Assembly (NCBI GenBank): GCA_905250055.1 | Contig: CAJNOF010000004.1 | Location: 951,250 to 1,015,249, forward strand | DNA: 64,000 nucleotides | Source: Rotaria sp. | Taxonomy: Eukaryota | Reading direction: 5' to 3' | Shown here: positions 6,001 through 26,418 of the stretch, in pieces | Layout: each line of letters begins with the position of its first letter | Position numbering within the stretch: the first letter of the stretch is position 1 | The notes under the pieces: model-generated | Told to the model about the DNA's origin: nothing | Databases searched by the model: none | What the model saw: the letters and a program-made list of their open reading frames with translations, nothing else | Made by a program: the position numbers and the translations under genes

Positions 6001-8580
6001 CTCAGAAGATGAATATAACGTTGCAACGTATTCTCTTTTTTTTCTATCAGAATAATCTTATAAATATACGTGGTGATTAACATTTTACTTTTCATATCTT
6101 TTAAATATGTTTAATCTCGATGTTTCTTTCATTTGACATGTGTCAATTAATAAAGTATCTAAACTTACTTTTGTTTCTTATAATTTTTTGAAGTTATTGA
6201 ATATATTTTAAGACATCTTATATTGTATAATGCTTTTATTATATTCAAATTTAAACGTTTTTCATTTAATTTAACAATAATATGATGATACTTGGTCATA
6301 CATTTAATAGAAACTCATTTTCTCATATTTACATCAATAGACACTAGCTACATCAAGAATGCCTATAAAGCATGCTATAAATATCATATAGAAAAAAAAT
6401 GTTAAGAACGTATAAAGAAATAAATGTATAGAAATCTGACATTGTTAAAGACTTAGTCACGAAACATTTTCCTGTTTATTTGCCAAGTAGTCAGAAGTAT
6501 CCATATAGGAATAATACATAAAACTACGTCGTATTATTTTCTTTAGTAATATATATAGTTTCTATTGTGAGTCAACCACTGTTTCATTGAAAAAGTCATG
6601 TTGACAAAGGTGAACTTGCTTTCTATTTTTTTTTACAGAAATTGTCATATTTTAATTATATTATTTTCTTGAACGTTACGAAGACATTTTATTCTTATTC
6701 AGGATCAAAATATGAATAGAAAACATTATTTGATTAGGTTTTGAGTTGATAAGGTAAAACAAAATTGTGCCCAAATATAGATATCTCCAATATGTCTCAG
6801 AGCACGCACTTGTATATAGTCTTGTAAATCTATCTAATTGTTTGTTGCAAGAGCTAAAAGCAAGTGTTTACCTCATGAGAATCATCGGATCATGAGCTAG
6901 AAATGTATTCATGCAATTTTTCTTTTAATTTAGTTTTACTGTTTAGAAAATTGAATTTTTCTCTTATTCAGTAGCAAAATTAGATTTACAAAAAAAGTGT
7001 AAAATGTGTCCACATAGTTTAGTAGTTTTTTTTTATTATTGTAGCTCAATTGTAAATTAACATAGATCTTATATTCAAAATTAGTATCAAAAACTGTACG
7101 TAATAACCTATGTGTTAGTAAAAATTGTTTGTAATAATAAATACACTTGGGGGTCCTCCTCAGATTTATTTTCTGAAAATTTTGCCTCTATTTTCTCAAA
7201 GAGTCAGGTTTTTTGTTATAAAAAAACTTAAAACACATATGATTCAATGTAGTTTTTCATGCTTATTCTAAATATATTATCTATTTTAATCTACAATTGA
7301 GCTATAGCAATAAAAAAAAAACGCTACATACGAAAGAATTATTGAATTGTTTTTGTCAATCTAATTTTGTCACTGAATAAGGAAAAATTTGATTTCCTCA
7401 ACAATCAAACAAAATTAGAAAGAGACTACATGGATACGTTTCTAGTTCACGACCTGACCGTTCTAATTAGGTAAAGCACTAGTTTCTAGCTCTTGTCACA
7501 AAAAAATGATATAAATTTGTGAAACTATTTAAAAGTACGTGTCACAAGACATTTTAGATATATCCATATTTGGACAGGATTTTGTTTAACTTTATCAACA
7601 TAAAATCTAGTCAAATAGCGTTTTTCTGTTCCGTCTTTGATGCTAAGTTAGAAAATAGTTTTTTTATTAAATTCCTGTAGAAAAAAAGGCGCATATTTGT
7701 TAATGCTACATTTTTAGTCATTCAAGTTTTTTAGTTTTCTTCCCAGCGAAGTAGTGGTTGAATCAAAATAAAAATTATATATTCGTAATTAACTCGTGAA
7801 GTTGTATCAAAACATTTATAAATAAACGAGAAAAATACATGTACTAGGTTTTTGCACCGTGCGTACCTCAAATAGTTCACCAATTATCGTAGTACATTTT
7901 GATCTTAAAAATTTCTTGAATAAGAGTGTATCATATTAATCACTAGAAACTGAATAATAAGAATCAACATAAATATATTAGTTTATGATAAAGTGTATGC
8001 CTCTAGCACGAGTTTCTGTAACCTTCCAGAATCATTAATATCTAGTTTCCTCCATAGATCCGTCTTGAAAAAAAAATATGTTGTCTAATTAAACCATAAG
8101 AACACTCATGCTGTGCCAGATAGAACAGAAAAGAGAGAAAATATCATAATAAAATATTTTTCTTTGAAATAGGTTAGTATGATAAGTAAAAGGTAACAAG
8201 TCAGCTAGACATACATTTGAAATTTTCTCAAAAAAGAAAATTTTCTAATATTGTATAGAGTCATTTTAAACTTTCTACTTTTTACTTACTTTAGACAAAT
8301 CAATAAAAAGTATTTTATTGATTAGCATATCTATATAAGAATAGAGATATATAAAACAATAAATCTTTTCTATTAAAAAAACAAAAACTTGTAGGAGAAT
8401 AGATGGTTAACATTAACCAACATTATATACAAAGCAGCTATTAGTAAAACGAAGATTTATTTTCTTCGATAGTTCTGCGTAATTAGTCTTTTCTTTTTTT
8501 AAGTGCTATTTTTATGTGATTTCAAAAGTAGAATTATCAATAATTATCATCATAATCTATACGATAAATATATTTTTTCC

Positions 8581-21000: not shown

Positions 21001-22130
21001 GACTATTCAATTCTTTTTCTAATGATATACTTTTAACAATTGTCTCTATTTTTCGATATCAATATAATCACCAACATACTGAAAGTATCGTAAACCTTTG
21101 CGTGCTAGAGAAAAATTAAAGTTCATGCTACTATCCGTTAGATCTAGTATGGGTACGTTACATAAACATTGACTCCAACTTTATATAGCAATCAAAATAT
21201 ATGATTCACCTCATTTCTTTCCATAGAAAACATCGAAGTAAAAGATGTCTTAAACTTTTGTAGCCTACTTTAAATAGAAAATACTAACTAATAAAGGCAT
21301 TTTATCTTCACGTGGAACAATAATTGGTGGTAGAACAGTTCCAAGAAAAACACCCAGAAAATTAGCTGAAAAAAAAAGTTCACACATCATAATATAAATT
21401 TTATATTTTTTTTTCTTACCTGCAAAACAAAGACTAGTTGCTAAAGTTCGTTGACTTTCTGGAAACCACGAAAAAGCAAATTTCGCTGGAATAAATAATG
21501 TAAATGTTTGCGCAAATGCACAAATAAATTGTCCTATTTGAATTAAAATCAATATTACAAAATAAAGTACTAGAAAATATGTATCTAAAATTAAAAAAAA
21601 AATTTACTTACCGACAAAAACAATTGGATATCGACTTTTAACTGATACAAATCCCCATGTACTTATGACACGAAAACATCCACCAATTAAGTTCATCCAA
21701 ACACCAGTTAAAATCTAAATAAAAAAAAAAATAATTCTCATATCTTAGTTTAATTTCTTTTTGAAGACTTACTCCAAATCGAATACCAAATTGATCAATA
21801 GCCCATGTTGATGGTATCGTAAAAATACTACAAACTACCATAAATATAAGCGAAAGCCAATTAATATCTGCATATGAAACATTAAAATAATTTTTTGCTA
21901 AATTAGCAATTGAAGCAAAATTAATCCATAACTACAACAAAACATATTTTTACAATAGGGAAAAAAGATACAAACTAAAATCTTACAATAGCATTTGACA
22001 TATTGGCTAAACATATACATACTAAATAAAGCCATCGTCGTCTGTAGACTTTAAATTCAGTCGGTGTCTCCTCTACTGTAGATGAAGAAGAAATTTCATT
22101 AGTAATAGCGCCGTACATCTAGAAATTGCA
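18047..22130 (-). CDS. MFS transporter of the FLVCR (feline leukemia virus subgroup C receptor / heme-choline transporter) family, copy A, ~13 exons
   Basis: Exons include MYGAITNEISSSSTVEETPTEFKVYRRRWLYLVCMCLANMSNAI (start 22130), DFASIANLAKNYFNVSYADINWLSLIFMVVCSIFTIPSTWAIDQFGIRFGVSL, GQFICAFAQTFTLFIPAKFAFSWFPESQRTLATSLCFAG, ANFLGVFLGTVLPPIIVPREDKMPLL, a ~2.1 kb intron, then LYLSLIPAILAAFLSLTVRSSQPPTPSC.., ..MCPFGYNDIAVGLCIGCFIIFGLIGCIVMGIIADKTKKLEE.., and a last exon ending TDSESI* at 18047. The blocks align to FLVCR1 ([67 protein letters not shown]). Confidence 0.75.
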
Positions 22131-22195
22131 CAATCAGAATGAAATAATATTAATATGTTCTTTTTTTTCTGTTTCGCAATTCTATCATTAGAAAA
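22131..22195. promoter_or_regulatory. Extremely short divergent (head-to-head) intergenic/5' region shared by the FLVCR-like gene (-) and the NMNAT-kinase ORF (+)
   Basis: The minus-strand ATG of the MFS gene is at 22130. The first plus-strand ATG of the fusion ORF is at 22155, and a more plausible ATG-ATG-GAT start at 22196. Either the core promoters overlap within under 70 bp or the 5' UTRs overlap. Confidence 0.3.
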
Positions 22196-23684
22196 TATGA
22201 TGGATACTAGTAAACTATTCTTGCCTTTATCAGATACAAAAAAGAATATTGTATTATTACTTAATGGTTGTTTCAATCCAATACATAATAATCACATTCG
22301 TTTACTAGAACTAGCCCGAGAACATTTAAATTCATTAAATATTTATCATGTTATTGGTGGTTATATTTCACCAGCTCATGATGCTGGTATTCTAAGAAAA
22401 TTATCTGTTCTTTATACAACATGGCAAAATCGTCTTGATATGTGTCGTTTAGCTGTTCATAATTCATCATGGATTATGGTTGATGAATGGCAAATATCTC
22501 AAGAGAAAAATTATGGTGCACAACAATCTAAACAACATTTAAGTGATTTTCTAAAAAAAATTAATCCTTCAATTCAAGTTGTATCTATTTGTGGTGGTGA
22601 TGCATTACCAAAAATGAAAGTAACATTTAAAAAAGAACTTGTTATGTGTATAATTAATCGACCAATTGATGATTTTGATTTTAATGAATGGTTTCAATCA
22701 TCAACAATAAAACCTTATCATAATAATATTATTGTTCTATATGATAATGATTGTATAAAAACTATGAGTAGTAGTTATATTCGTCAACAAATAAGTAAAA
22801 ATTTTTATGATACTCTTATTGACGTTCTTCATCCATCAGTACTTGATTATCATCAGGAACATAGTATTAATTATCGTTCATCAGATGAAACAATTCTTTG
22901 GTCAGATTTTGATGATAATGAAACTATTGAACTTGGTCAAGGTCGATGTGCTACTGTTTATGCTAAACAATATAAAAATCAACAAGTTGCTGTTAAAGTT
23001 ATTCGTGAACGTAAACAGTTTATAAATGAATCAAAAGTTTTAATATTATTAGCTAATGATACGTCTTATCATACAAATATTATTCGAATATATGGTATAG
23101 GTGATCAATTTTGTGTTATGGAAAAATGTGATATTGATCTTCTTTCATACATTAAATTAAATCGAACATCAATAAATCAAACATTACAAACCATTTTTCC
23201 AAATCAACAATGGTTTCAATTAATTGAACAAATGCTTTCTGGTTTTGTTCATCTTATTTCACTTGGAATTCTTCATCGTGATATAAAAACAGATAATATT
23301 CTTTTATTAAATATGATTGTTAAAATATCAGATTTTAGTGTATCAATTAATCAAAATTCAATAATTAAAATGCCATTAAGAGGATCCATACGTCATTATG
23401 CACCAGAAGCTATTGAAGATAAAAAAATTTATACAGAAAAAGCTGATGTTTATATGTTTGGATGTTTACTTTATGAAATAGTTCATGGTGGTGAACGTAT
23501 TTGGAGTGAAAAATCTATATCTACTGTTGTTCAAAAACGTTCAAATGGTGAAAAGCCAATATTTTCTGTACAATCTGAACCATGGTATATTGATATGGTG
23601 GTGCATGATTGTTGGGCAATGAATCCTAATCAACGATCAACATTTGAACAATTACTACAAAAAACTCGTTTGAAAAAATTATAA
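22155..23684 (+). CDS. Single-exon fusion protein: N-terminal NMNAT-like nucleotidyltransferase domain + C-terminal protein kinase domain (509 aa)
   Basis: Residues ~30-215 form the NMNAT domain: LLLNGCFNPIHNNHIRLLELA (GxFxPxH..H nucleotidyltransferase motif), VIGGYISPAHDA, WIMVDEWQ, ICGGDALPKM and SSSYIRQQI (the ISSTxIR motif). Residues ~250-505 form the kinase domain: G-loop GQGRCATVY, VAVKVI (Lys), HRDIKTDNILL (catalytic loop), DFS (in place of DFG), APE, DVYMFGCLLYEI and a conserved Arg in NPNQRSTF. No stop and no intron-like interruption across 1530 nt. Confidence 0.8.
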   Translation: MFFFFCFAILSLENMMDTSKLFLPLSDTKKNIVLLLNGCFNPIHNNHIRLLELAREHLNSLNIYHVIGGYISPAHDAGILRKLSVLYTTWQNRLDMCRLAVHNSSWIMVDEWQISQEKNYGAQQSKQHLSDFLKKINPSIQVVSICGGDALPKMKVTFKKELVMCIINRPIDDFDFNEWFQSSTIKPYHNNIIVLYDNDCIKTMSSSYIRQQISKNFYDTLIDVLHPSVLDYHQEHSINYRSSDETILWSDFDDNETIELGQGRCATVYAKQYKNQQVAVKVIRERKQFINESKVLILLANDTSYHTNIIRIYGIGDQFCVMEKCDIDLLSYIKLNRTSINQTLQTIFPNQQWFQLIEQMLSGFVHLISLGILHRDIKTDNILLLNMIVKISDFSVSINQNSIIKMPLRGSIRHYAPEAIEDKKIYTEKADVYMFGCLLYEIVHGGERIWSEKSISTVVQKRSNGEKPIFSVQSEPWYIDMVVHDCWAMNPNQRSTFEQLLQKTRLKKL

Positions 23685-25920
23685 GAAAAGAATCAGATGA
23701 GAACTATGACGCACCAATGACAAATTATTGCATACTAAAAAGACAAATATTTAGTGACATCTTTCGTCAGTAACCCATTATAAATTTTTCTTATTAAAAT
23801 AAAAACTTCAGTAAAATTTTTCAGAAGAATTTACATAGAAGATATTTTTCAATTCACTAGAAAAAAACGTATACGCAACGAAAATAAATGAAAAAGATAT
23901 TCATGACTGTTAACCGTCGATTCCAATTTCAATACCGATTCACTCAATTAAATCATATGAAAATCTCTCAATGAAAATTGAATCAGTGATTTGCTAATGG
24001 TCTGATATGGTTTTTTTTCACCCATCACCTAATAATTCGAAGACAATCATCTTGATTTATTCTTTTGTGCAGTGATGGATTTAGGACGAAAGAGCGACAC
24101 AATGCGCATTTTTCCAGTAGAAGGTGGACATGGACTTCCATGCTCAGATATGATTGGATATGACTTAGAGAAGCATTTTTAAGAAAGAAAAACATTTTTT
24201 GGAAAAAGATGCTTTTCGACAAAACCTTTTGCGTTATATATTATTCGACGCAGTTTAAATCTCCTCATTCCGAATATAATATTTTTGTCAATAAGATATT
24301 TTTCTAAAGCTAGACAACTATCTTAAAAAACTGGGTTTTTTGAAAACCTACTGTGCAGTTCAGGGATATATGCACTAACCTTAACTAGAGACATTTGATA
24401 GAAGAACATTCTAAGAAAAGTTGGAATAGTTTAGAAGCTAAATGTGAGTAGGTTGCTCATTTCACGAGACTAATCGTTCGAATGACACTGGGAAATAAAT
24501 ACTTTTTTCTCAGAAGTTAGACAAAACTGTTTACTTTTGTTATATGTCAATTTTGCTGGTGATATTACGACTTTCAGAGTAAATTTTTGGAGAACTAGAC
24601 TTTTAGTTTATTTGACAGTTATGAGAAAGTTATTCATACCATTAGATAAACTATAGATCTATGTATATTTCCCTATATTTAAATGTTGAACAAGTGCGAT
24701 TTTCCAAGTTAGCCATATGTTCGCCTAAATGTATAATATGGGATGAAGGGAACTCAGGATGATCAATTCTTCATTTTGAAGTATTTTTTCGTTTTTTTCA
24801 GCAGAAAATGCTTAGAAATGAGCCGATACGACCCCTAATTTGACTTAGAAACACGTTTTTTGTGACTTTGATCGCTTTCATTTATGAAAATCCTAGATAC
24901 ATCACTACTTTCATGCATATTTGCTCAATCCTTCGATAAATTCTACGAGCATGATTTCATATTCTTTGTAAGTTTGTTTTATTTCCAGGATTTTCCAAAG
25001 AAAACAAAAGTTTTTGAACGAAGATTTTGTTTCACGCGCATATTTTTCTGTGTTAAAATGACACTTAAATCAATAAACTTTGCTATAGATTTGGTCCTTC
25101 TTGAACTTTCCAGGACATAAGAATTTGCTATAAACTAAACATGATCATTTAAGATCTCCATCGAGTTCGACGATACCAATATTATTCGAAACTACGATTC
25201 CGGTTCGGCTTTCAAAATATCACGTAGAACCAAAATCGTTATATCATCAAATAGATACGAAAATTTTAATTATTTCTTGTTTGACAAAGTTGCACTAGTG
25301 AACTGTTGAGATTAAAGACGAACTGTTTCAATACTTAAACAAAAGAATATTTTGTATATATACTGAAATCTTCAGTCTTAAGAATGAAAAAATGAAGATT
25401 TTTTGACATAGGTTTAAGGACTTTTATATCTAACTGATGATTAAGCGGTTTCATATCGGTTCATATTTCCAGGTTTTTTCGAACTCCTGAGTTTTACTAC
25501 CATCTGTCATGATGAACGCCTAAGCCACAACACTCCTCTATCACAAATGGTGACAGATAGTGTAAACAGTCGAATTGAAGATAGTTGTCCTTCGTTCTTC
25601 TTTTATGCTGACTGTAATATAAAAGGATTATAACCTTTTGTCATCGAAATGTATTATACTAGTAGTTAGGAATGCAGCAAAAACGGAACTCATATTGATG
25701 AATTCTTGTTTTGACAATGTTAGCAATTCTATCGTATTTCACATTTTTATCTCGCACGGATTGCACTAACAGCCTTTTAAACATTTTCTTAAAATAAATT
25801 GTGTGTATAATATTAATGAAAACAGACTTTTCGATATCGATTCAAACATCATTATGATTGAAAATATTATTCATAGTAGTCAAGAAGTATTTCGATATAT
25901 CAATATCCGAATGTTACGTG

Positions 25921-26418
25921 TCAAATGTTCATTTGTGCATGACATTTATGCCAGTAGGTAACAAAATGTTTGACATTATTTTTTTGAATATCATTATCAA
26001 ATGATGCTGGACGTATTTTAATCAATGAGTTTATAGCAGCTTCAGCTGAACAAGTCCATCGAACAGCTAAATAGCAAGCAATAAAAATAGCTAAAATACC
26101 TTGACCTCGTATTGATTGCATGAGTACTGGCTCGCCACGATCTCGTGCTGCTAATACAACATTAATAAAATCAATAATCTGCTCAAATGTTGGACAACAA
26201 TGTTCAGCTATTGAGAAACACACATGCTTGAATGAATTACTATGCGGTGGAATATTCATGTCAATATTCACTAATAGACGAATTCCTTGTGAGCGAAGAT
26301 ATTGCATATGAGAGTGATGAAAAGGTTGAGCACTTGCAGCGAGAACACGATCTTCGATCCAGGAAAAATAAGGTGGCATTGAATCATAAGCTGCATTACA
26401 ATTTAAATAATTATTCAT
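25921..26418 (-). CDS. DUSP23 (VHZ)-like dual-specificity phosphatase fold, single exon, catalytic Cys and Arg substituted (predicted pseudophosphatase)
   Basis: The 165-aa ORF is collinear with human DUSP23 over its whole length: PYFSWIEDRVLAASAQP, LLVNIDMNIPPHSNSF, EHCCPTFEQIIDFINVV, GEPVLMQS. The signature VHCALGFGRTG (CX5R) is replaced by LMQSIRGQGIL, so Cys becomes Ser and Arg becomes Ile. The general-acid position is D to E (SIAEHC vs RIPDFC). Confidence 0.7.
   Translation of the reverse strand: MNNYLNCNAAYDSMPPYFSWIEDRVLAASAQPFHHSHMQYLRSQGIRLLVNIDMNIPPHSNSFKHVCFSIAEHCCPTFEQIIDFINVVLAARDRGEPVLMQSIRGQGILAIFIACYLAVRWTCSAEAAINSLIKIRPASFDNDIQKNNVKHFVTYWHKCHAQMNI

Follow-up and report, generated by a model that had tools for sequence, protein, structure and literature searches.

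The NMNAT–kinase gene and its product

The 64,000-nucleotide stretch analysed here (hereafter the window) comes from the bdelloid rotifer Rotaria sp. (assembly GCA_905250055.1, contig CAJNOF010000004.1, positions 951,250 to 1,015,249 of the forward strand) and consists of AT-rich eukaryotic DNA of ∼29% GC. On its plus strand, to which all coordinates below refer unless stated otherwise, lies a single-exon gene whose product joins an N-terminal domain of the nicotinamide/nicotinic-acid mononucleotide adenylyltransferase (NMNAT) type to a C-terminal protein kinase domain. The maximal open reading frame (ORF) spans 22155..23684 and encodes 509 amino acids, with the ATG at 22155 and the TAA at 23682-23684 both verified. 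The likeliest coding sequence (CDS), 22197..23684, is one exon of 495 codons plus stop that begins at a second in-frame ATG (MMDTSK...), the start used in the public annotation and in most orthologues; conservation of the 14 codons that precede it (MFFFFCFAILSLEN) is lost in more distant orthologues. With 100% identity, the 495-residue protein matches P0001, the annotated product of a gene on a 5.5 Mb contig of Rotaria sp. Silwood1. In the public model, too, this gene consists of one exon, positions 10001-11488 of L003 translating exactly to the window protein with no intron. Since the gene has a single exon and translates exactly, the fusion is not an artefact of a splicing model, in agreement with an earlier note on this DNA that had called it genuine rather than a gene-model mis-join. 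That note had described the 509-residue ORF correctly, and every motif that it quoted was found.

The NMNAT-type nucleotidyltransferase domain comprises residues 15-228 of the 495-residue protein (22239..22880), as delimited by Pfam, NCBIfam, PDB sequence matches and AlphaFold2 (AF2) modelling. Pfam CTP_transf_like (PF01467) matches ORF residues 36-211 with an E-value of 1.2e-14 and 55 bits against a cutoff of 21, and the top NCBIfam model for this half, the NMNAT/NadD equivalog TIGR00482, aligns at positions 2-190 of 194 (E 1.1e-20). Among solved structures the best sequence match is 9rpk, a 263-residue NMNAT, over residues 13-224, which is the whole domain (E 8e-19); human NMNAT3 and NMNAT1 match at ∼1e-15, NMNAT3 with ∼45% identity over the first 90 residues, and a bacterial NadD only at 4e-4. 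The best profile and structure matches were all to NMNAT/NadD and none came from other cytidylyltransferase-like families. In the AF2 model the domain is built of alternating β and α elements ending in C-terminal helices, with a predicted local distance difference test (pLDDT) score above 90.

The active site was compared across 24 family members spanning all clades. The ATP-binding/catalytic motif GxFxPx(H/T)xxH reads GCFNPIHNNH in the window protein (22266..22295), and its G24, F26, P28, H30 and H33 are invariant in 24/24 members. The basic pair R67-K68 (22395..22400), of which K68 is invariant, aligns within one or two residues of K57/K58 of human NMNAT1. Invariance in the family alignment extends to G133 and D135 of the GxD motif CGGDAL (22590..22607) and to S192 and R196 of SSSYIR (22767..22784), the SxxxxR (ISSTxxR) motif for the ATP β- and γ-phosphates. 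HNNH and SSSYIR had been rightly recognised in the earlier note as the NMNAT (H/T)xxH and SxxxxR motifs. The histidines of (H/T)xxH touch the α- and β-phosphates of ATP, the second being essential for catalysis, and SxxxxR touches the β- and γ-phosphates (PMC12470169). Eukaryotic NMNATs (human NMNAT1/2/3 and plant enzymes; EC 2.7.7.1/2.7.7.18) share with the window protein a Rossmann-like fold of the HIGH superfamily, GxFxPx(H/T)xxH, GxD, ISSTxxR and a basic pair near K57, and their C-terminal ‘Y-x-x-x-H-x-(I/L)-Y’ helix aligns as well. This helix is YHQEHSINY in the window (22848-22874), matching the canonical ‘Y-I-x-x-H-x-L’ helix, and YHxxHxIxY in the family (compare ‘vidyirqhql’ in 9rpk); a reading of YHxxHxIxY as a novel linker motif was rejected on the ground of this equivalence. 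Judged by these residues, ATP binding and chemistry look intact in the N-terminal domain, and the acceptor pocket looks remodelled.

The protein kinase domain, of tyrosine kinase-like (TKL) or tyrosine kinase (TK)-like type, occupies residues 244-495 (22926..23681) and was assigned from Pfam, PDB sequence and fold searches. Pfam PK_Tyr_Ser-Thr matches ORF residues 259-502 (E 4.4e-35) and Pkinase matches with E 7.6e-32, so that domain profiles pass for both halves of the protein. Hanks subdomains I-XI are complete, as had been claimed: they include the G-loop GQGRCA (22935-22952), VAVK with K267 (22986-22997), αC Glu278 (within 23022-23036), the catalytic loop HRDIKTDN (23274-23297), DFS (23331-23339), RGSIRHYAPE (23379-23408), DVYMFG of subdomain IX (23445-23462) and Arg480 of subdomain XI (within 23628-23645). 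Across the 24 members K267, E278, D362, N367, D379, E404, D417 and R480 are invariant or nearly so, the family-wide invariants being GxG, VAxK, the αC Glu, HRD..N, DFx, RGxxRxYxPE, the subdomain IX Asp and the subdomain XI Arg. The DFG glycine is not among them: the window protein, like that of most bdelloids, reads DFS, and the family carries DFG, DFS, DFH or DFT with Asp and Phe invariant, which shows the substitution to be tolerated, as the earlier note had supposed. DF[GSHT]-x(13-16)-RGxxRxYxPE constitutes a family-specific activation-segment signature. The bdelloid protein has a fully canonical Ser/Thr-type residue set, its catalytic loop (HRDIKTDN) and its P+1 region (‘RGS’) both being of Ser/Thr type.

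Best matches of this half in sequence and fold, and all of its Hanks subdomains, are those of TKL and tyrosine-kinase-like kinases (DLK/MAP3K12, TAK1, LRRK2, Src/ITK), from which its own activation-segment signature and the lack of specific orthology distinguish it. PDB sequence matches lie at ∼1e-15, with TK (Src/Abl ancestor, ITK, FGFR) and TKL (DLK, LRRK2, TAK1) kinases mixed at equal E-values. A proposed kinship with DLK/MAP3K12 therefore holds at the level of the group only, as Src, ITK and LRRK2 match with equal E-values. Fold comparison with the PDB yielded matches to kinase domains only (target-normalised template modelling (TM) score 0.75-0.84) and no solved structure covering both the NMNAT-type and kinase halves. 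The top non-family kinase matches (P0091, P0092, P0094-P0096 and others) are giant proteins of up to 2911 residues with 4-10 tandem kinase domains, found on eukaryotic contigs, in parabasalids and in Anaeramoeba, and by virtue of these matches the kinase half resembles protist-expanded TKL-like kinases.

A 15-residue linker (residues 229-243, 22881..22925) connects the two domains and is predicted to be ordered, with pLDDT 83-87. AF2 modelling from 12 sequences gave pLDDT 86 and a predicted TM (pTM) score of 0.64, and from 38 sequences pLDDT 91.7 and pTM 0.75 with the linker ordered, pTM being an indirect indicator of an inter-domain interface. These models are consistent with a compact, fixed arrangement of the two domains.

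Conservation, distribution and origin of the fusion

Within bdelloids the gene is widespread. The three Pfam signatures occur together in more than 30 clusters (90% identity) drawn from Rotaria, Adineta and environmental bdelloids, and the fusion extends to Didymodactylos carnosus, at 46% identity. The syntenic block HIT – Cript – MFS_1/cyclophilin – NMNAT–kinase gene – Cyclin_D1_bind is common to Rotaria and the chromosome-level assembly of Adineta vaga, in which the gene, I4U23_029832, sits on a 13.9 Mb chromosome; in both it is intronless and its neighbours carry introns. The composition of the CDS is host-like (27% GC against 29% for the window; 8% GC at third codon positions). Nei-Gojobori dN/dS for five orthologue pairs was 0.24-0.39 in the NMNAT half and 0.26-0.47 in the kinase half, values that are upper bounds since the extreme AT bias at third positions compresses dS. 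Both halves are under similar purifying selection.

We also made an exhaustive profile search over 1.84 billion representative proteins. Besides bdelloids, ∼12 clusters at 50% identity match the fusion profile end to end in one stretch, and CTP_transf_like and Pkinase are both present in 10/10 of the non-bdelloid clusters tested. Named members come from the Heterolobosea Willaertia magna and Naegleria lovaniensis and from Tetrahymena malaccensis, to which a follow-up search added T. thermophila SB210 (P0254) and T. utriculariae, both annotated only as ‘protein kinase’ because their N-terminal domain falls below the Pfam threshold. One GC-rich clade with an extra N-terminal region derives from a compact eukaryotic genome in which Symplekin, SET, SNAP and MBOAT are neighbours. 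A further six clusters form a clade found on contigs of prokaryotic style, one of them 46 kb long and carrying PSCyt2, PSD1, DUF1501 and SBP_bac_10/N_methyl; as these are hallmarks of Planctomycetota, we regard the clade as Planctomycetota-type. A pattern search of GTDB representative genomes returned no fusion, only a Nanoarchaeota NMNAT-like gene with no kinase, so that the bacterial clade is known from metagenomes only. No animal other than bdelloids has the fusion among the profile-search matches. Orthologous fusions thus exist throughout bdelloids, as the earlier note had proposed to ascertain, and in protists and Planctomycetota-like bacteria too, with no published characterisation found. 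Its suggestion of a lineage-specific animal coupling tied to axon-survival biology fails on this distribution, the same fusion occurring in Heterolobosea, ciliates, another eukaryote and Planctomycetota-like bacteria and being absent from other animals.

Some family members invited other readings. In the Naegleria lovaniensis member (P0040; PYSW02000002.1, L002 ∼6260-6353) an annotated intron encodes the conserved NMNAT segment QLAVENSDWIAVDEYQ in a +1-shifted frame. Partial loss of the NMNAT domain was accordingly rejected in favour of a gene-model or frameshift artefact, the intron being either mis-modelled or the mark of a frameshift, whether through assembly error or in a pseudogene. No conserved neighbourhood was found in the bacterial members. 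In one planctomycete-type member (P0039) the gene shares 4 bp with a Sigma70_r2-like gene, and an operon of extracytoplasmic function (ECF) sigma factor and kinase was considered and dropped, three other members having unrelated neighbours. Membership of an anti-phage defence kinase group (MADS mad6, PD-T4-6, Stk2, PglW) was likewise rejected, the PADLOC/NCBIfam matches covering the kinase domain only (positions 58-309 of 659 in the mad6 profile). Stand-alone forms of the N-terminal domain also exist (P0146, P0154 and P0103; 232-242 residues) and end just past the YHxxHxIxY helix. One of them is GC-rich, bacterial-looking and annotated NadD; P0103 resembles a bdelloid copy cut short, and shares its cluster with a 500-residue member. 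They are either true single-domain genes or fragments.

Neighbour-joining trees were built without outgroups from 219 columns of the NMNAT half, 237 columns of the kinase half and the full length. Bdelloids are monophyletic in all three (bootstrap 90% for the NMNAT half, 97% for the kinase half and 100% for the full length), with Didymodactylos basal as in the species tree. For the NMNAT and kinase halves, respectively, bootstrap values were 100/100% for Planctomycetota, 100/92% for Heterolobosea and 99.5/100% for the GC-rich eukaryotes, and the pairing of planctomycetes with GC-rich eukaryotes received 86% (NMNAT half), 72% (kinase half) and 99% (full length). Because the separate trees give the same clades, the halves have evolved together ever since one ancient fusion event, and have been inherited or transferred jointly.

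As the criterion for horizontal gene transfer (HGT) we took a best non-metazoan match at least 30 bits above the best non-rotifer metazoan match, together with physical linkage to native genes. The best non-metazoan match, P0039, scores 247 bits and the best non-rotifer animal match, fish PTK6, scores 52 bits over the kinase domain only; the gene lies between intron-bearing Cript/HIT/MFS and Cyclin_D1_bind genes on a chromosome-scale scaffold. It thereby resembles known bdelloid foreign genes in being intronless, absent from other animals, closest to bacterial and protist sequences, set among native intron-bearing genes and host-like in composition. In the trees the bdelloid clade is long-stemmed and nested in no donor clade, and no sister group of it has support (bootstrap of ≤20% for bdelloids plus planctomycetes); for this reason HGT rests on the taxonomic distribution and not on topology. 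Vertical descent with massive loss in other lineages is the alternative, compared with which HGT is the more parsimonious history, given the absence of the gene from all other Metazoa, its lack of introns and the gap in bit score. Most likely, we infer, the bdelloid stem lineage gained the gene horizontally from a microbial donor, protist or bacterium. The acquisition is old, preceding the split of Didymodactylos, Rotaria and Adineta.

A related architecture is listed for A. vaga in Table S2 of PMC12220480, where FUN_000003-T1 appears as a Cytidylyltransferase-like domain fused to an NAD:arginine ADP-ribosyltransferase. The entry is flagged as HGT, with best matches in the ciliate Stentor and expression of 1-4 transcripts per million. 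As far as that table goes, it suggests that NMNAT-like domains joined to NAD-related or signalling partners have come into bdelloids from protists more than once.

Proposed function and alternative explanations

We know of no characterised NMNAT covalently fused to a protein kinase. In the literature we found no description of an architecture combining an NMNAT/cytidylyltransferase-like domain with a protein kinase, in keeping with the earlier note's statement that it was unfamiliar, and family proteins in public databases are labelled ‘hypothetical’, ‘unnamed’ or ‘protein kinase’. Bacterial NadR, composed of a helix-turn-helix (HTH) domain, an NMNAT and a ribosylnicotinamide kinase, is similar in placing an NMNAT-type domain and a ‘kinase’ in one polypeptide with a regulatory output, and its NMNAT domain probably serves as an NAD sensor as well. 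The kinase of NadR, however, is a P-loop small-molecule kinase accompanied by a DNA-binding HTH, whereas the C-terminal half of the window protein is a eukaryotic-type protein kinase; Pfam and NCBIfam detected no HTH or P-loop kinase profile in it, and the only sequence relation to NadR that they revealed lies at the level of the NMNAT superfamily. By analogy, NadR might nevertheless be the closest precedent for how an NMNAT–kinase protein works. Likeness to GCN2 is purely functional, an enzyme-derived ligand-binding domain being fused to, and controlling, a protein kinase. The HisRS-like domain of GCN2 is catalytically dead, in contrast to the invariant residues of the window family, and fold class and domain order also differ.

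Across about five deep clades, neither half shows any change in its catalytic or ATP-binding residues. We consider it probable, with some reservation, that the window holds a functional bdelloid gene of an ancient, patchily distributed and uncharacterised family, whose members couple an NMNAT-type adenylyltransferase to a competent TKL-like Ser/Thr kinase. The N-terminal domain would bind ATP and transfer its nucleotidyl group to a pyridine mononucleotide, either nicotinamide mononucleotide (NMN) or nicotinic acid mononucleotide (NaMN), or to a related acceptor, in a remodelled pocket. Nucleotide occupancy or turnover in this domain, probably also oligomerisation as in canonical NMNATs, which are oligomers, would gate the adjacent kinase, and phosphorylation output would thus be tied to NAD-precursor/ATP status in a manner comparable with the NadR sensor or with GCN2 control. 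A bolder proposal, which we put forward tentatively and with a good deal of doubt, is that the family forms a new class of metabolite-gated protein kinases, in which NMN/NaMN/NAD+ and ATP are sensed or turned over by a catalytically live NMNAT-type domain that directly switches the kinase.

Several observations weigh against this interpretation, foremost at the acceptor site. The score of 74.5 bits with TIGR00482 is below the curated cutoff of 112.45. By alignment, the place of the animal WxxT NMN-binding motif is taken by KNYGAQ (22506..22523), for which the family consensus is N-x-G. The W169-bearing loop that follows GxD is deleted, leaving a 10-residue gap relative to plant NMNAT at ‘LSFCTPGVWI’; the region has no conserved aromatic residue across the family, and in the AF2 model one short helix (137-144) lies between the strands. 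These two changes, with the attached protein kinase, set the family apart from eukaryotic NMNATs. WxxT forms the NMN site in flies and mammals, and mutation of W169 in human NMNAT1 abolishes NAD+ synthesis; yeast NMNATs are active and also have no WxxT, so that its loss alone is not disqualifying (PMC12470169). Given the sub-threshold score, the NxG replacement and the deleted loop, the acceptor may be something other than NMN, and NAD+ synthesis by this domain is plausible but unproven on the residues present. Of the description ‘NAD+-synthesising enzyme’ in the earlier note, the NMNAT-type assignment is thus correct and the functional label premature. In the kinase half, the catalytic-loop lysine (HRDxK) occurs, among the 24 members compared, only in bdelloids and in the unplaced member P0218, a variability that separates the family from TKL and tyrosine-kinase-like kinases, and because of it kinase chemistry may be atypical in the wider family. 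Short public contigs L001 (1688 nt) and L010 (1845 nt), searched for a transcript, proved to be genomic; neither carries a poly(A) tail or a spliced leader. The domain arrangement, too, is read from an indirect score, and functional coupling of the NMNAT-type and kinase domains is something that we purely infer.

In view of these changes, two other accounts of the N-terminal domain must be considered. The protein could be a plain bifunctional enzyme, with the N-terminal domain serving as an NMN/NaMN adenylyltransferase that makes NAD+ or nicotinic acid adenine dinucleotide in a housekeeping or compartment-specific role and the kinase regulating or co-localising with it, with no sensing involved. 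The activity of yeast NMNATs that lack WxxT (PMC12470169) would allow for this. The solved structures nearest to the domain are indeed eukaryotic NMNATs (E 1e-15 to 8e-19), all catalytic and ATP-binding motifs are invariant, and stand-alone domains of the family type are annotated NadD (P0146, P0154). Tetrahymena, Naegleria and other eukaryotes are nevertheless expected to hold canonical NMNATs too, and this consideration, together with deletion of the W169 loop, exchange of WxxT for a conserved NxG and a score under the curated NMNAT cutoff, leads us to regard a purely bifunctional enzyme as unlikely. Conversely, the domain may have changed so far that it uses another small-molecule acceptor, acts as an ATPase or chaperone-like module or persists as a ligand-binding pseudo-enzyme, with nothing directly NAD-synthetic about it. 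Both NMN-recognition elements are lost or replaced and the ATP-binding elements kept, and the domain clears only the superfamily-level Pfam threshold, as such a change would predict. SxxxxR, reported to be dispensable for NAD+ synthesis and needed for the ATPase/chaperone activity of NMNATs, is moreover nearly invariant (PMC12470169). The catalysis-essential second histidine of (H/T)xxH, however, is invariant over very deep divergence, which argues for kept chemistry rather than binding alone, and NMNAT/NadD accounts for all of the best profile and structure matches; we therefore rate this account as less likely again.

A third possibility is that the gene is an artefact, be it contamination, an assembly chimera or a decaying pseudogene. 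An intronless gene with bacterial and protist relatives is superficially contamination-like, but its position on the 5.5 Mb Rotaria contig and the 13.9 Mb A. vaga chromosome, in synteny among intron-containing animal genes, its host-like, AT-rich codon usage, a frame that is open in more than 30 orthologues and dN/dS well below 1 in both halves make this highly improbable. Both kinds of domain are known, their fusion is conserved, uncharacterised and not animal-specific, and the bdelloid copy is probably foreign.

NMNAT catalyses the universal last step of NAD+ synthesis, and in animals the interplay of NMNAT and kinases is a central topic, as in the control of NMNAT2 by DLK/MAPK signalling and the sensing of NMN by SARM1. 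An NMNAT-type domain wired to a protein kinase would be a compact, testable model of the control of phosphorylation by pyridine nucleotides, and the existence of a member in the genetically tractable T. thermophila makes the hypothesis directly testable. Were the family metabolite-gated, protists, Planctomycetes and, through HGT, bdelloids would possess a one-protein link from NAD-precursor status to phosphorylation signalling, which in bdelloids might relate to the large amounts of NAD+ that DNA repair consumes following desiccation. As an old, retained and constrained gene of probably foreign origin, it joins the candidate contributors to bdelloid stress physiology, and in evolutionary terms it would be a clear example of two fused domains passing as a module between bacteria, protists and an animal.

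Flanking sequences

Upstream, the NMNAT–kinase gene is paired head to head with the MFS_1/cyclophilin gene on the minus strand, whose start codon (MYGAITNE...) lies at 22116..22118 (CAT on the plus strand). The two start codons are 78 nt apart (22119-22196), and the pairing is kept across bdelloids. Such spacing implies that the promoter and 5′ untranslated regions (UTRs) of the two genes are overlapping or bidirectional. A 15-mer, CCGTACATCTAGAAA (22111-22125), is invariant in six bdelloid loci; it spans the ATG of the MFS_1/cyclophilin gene and was for this reason rejected as a promoter element.

Downstream, the 3′ flank (window ∼23690-23770; L001 1600-1688; L010 1570-1640; L009) has two conserved motifs soon after the stop codon, CACCAATGA(A/C)A and TTAGTGACATCT, which occur in orthologues of just 72-79% amino-acid identity. 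In R. socialis (L009) the region is read as protein and forms a C-terminal extension (…DESYDAPMNYSNIGITTE). The peptide DENYDAPMTNY, the same as in that extension, is readable after the TAA in the window only in a shifted frame. The conservation could reflect either a lost C-terminal tail or a conserved 3′ UTR element.

Further along, on the minus strand, an intronless ORF of 165 residues (25921-26418) matches a DSP-PTPase-type domain (PTP-SAK, E 2.3e-7; polymorphic-toxin Tc-R-P, E 1.7e-5) and is without annotation in the matching public Rotaria locus. At the place of the HCxxGxxR active site it reads QSIRGQGI, with neither Cys nor Arg, and its product, if this is a gene at all, would be a pseudophosphatase.

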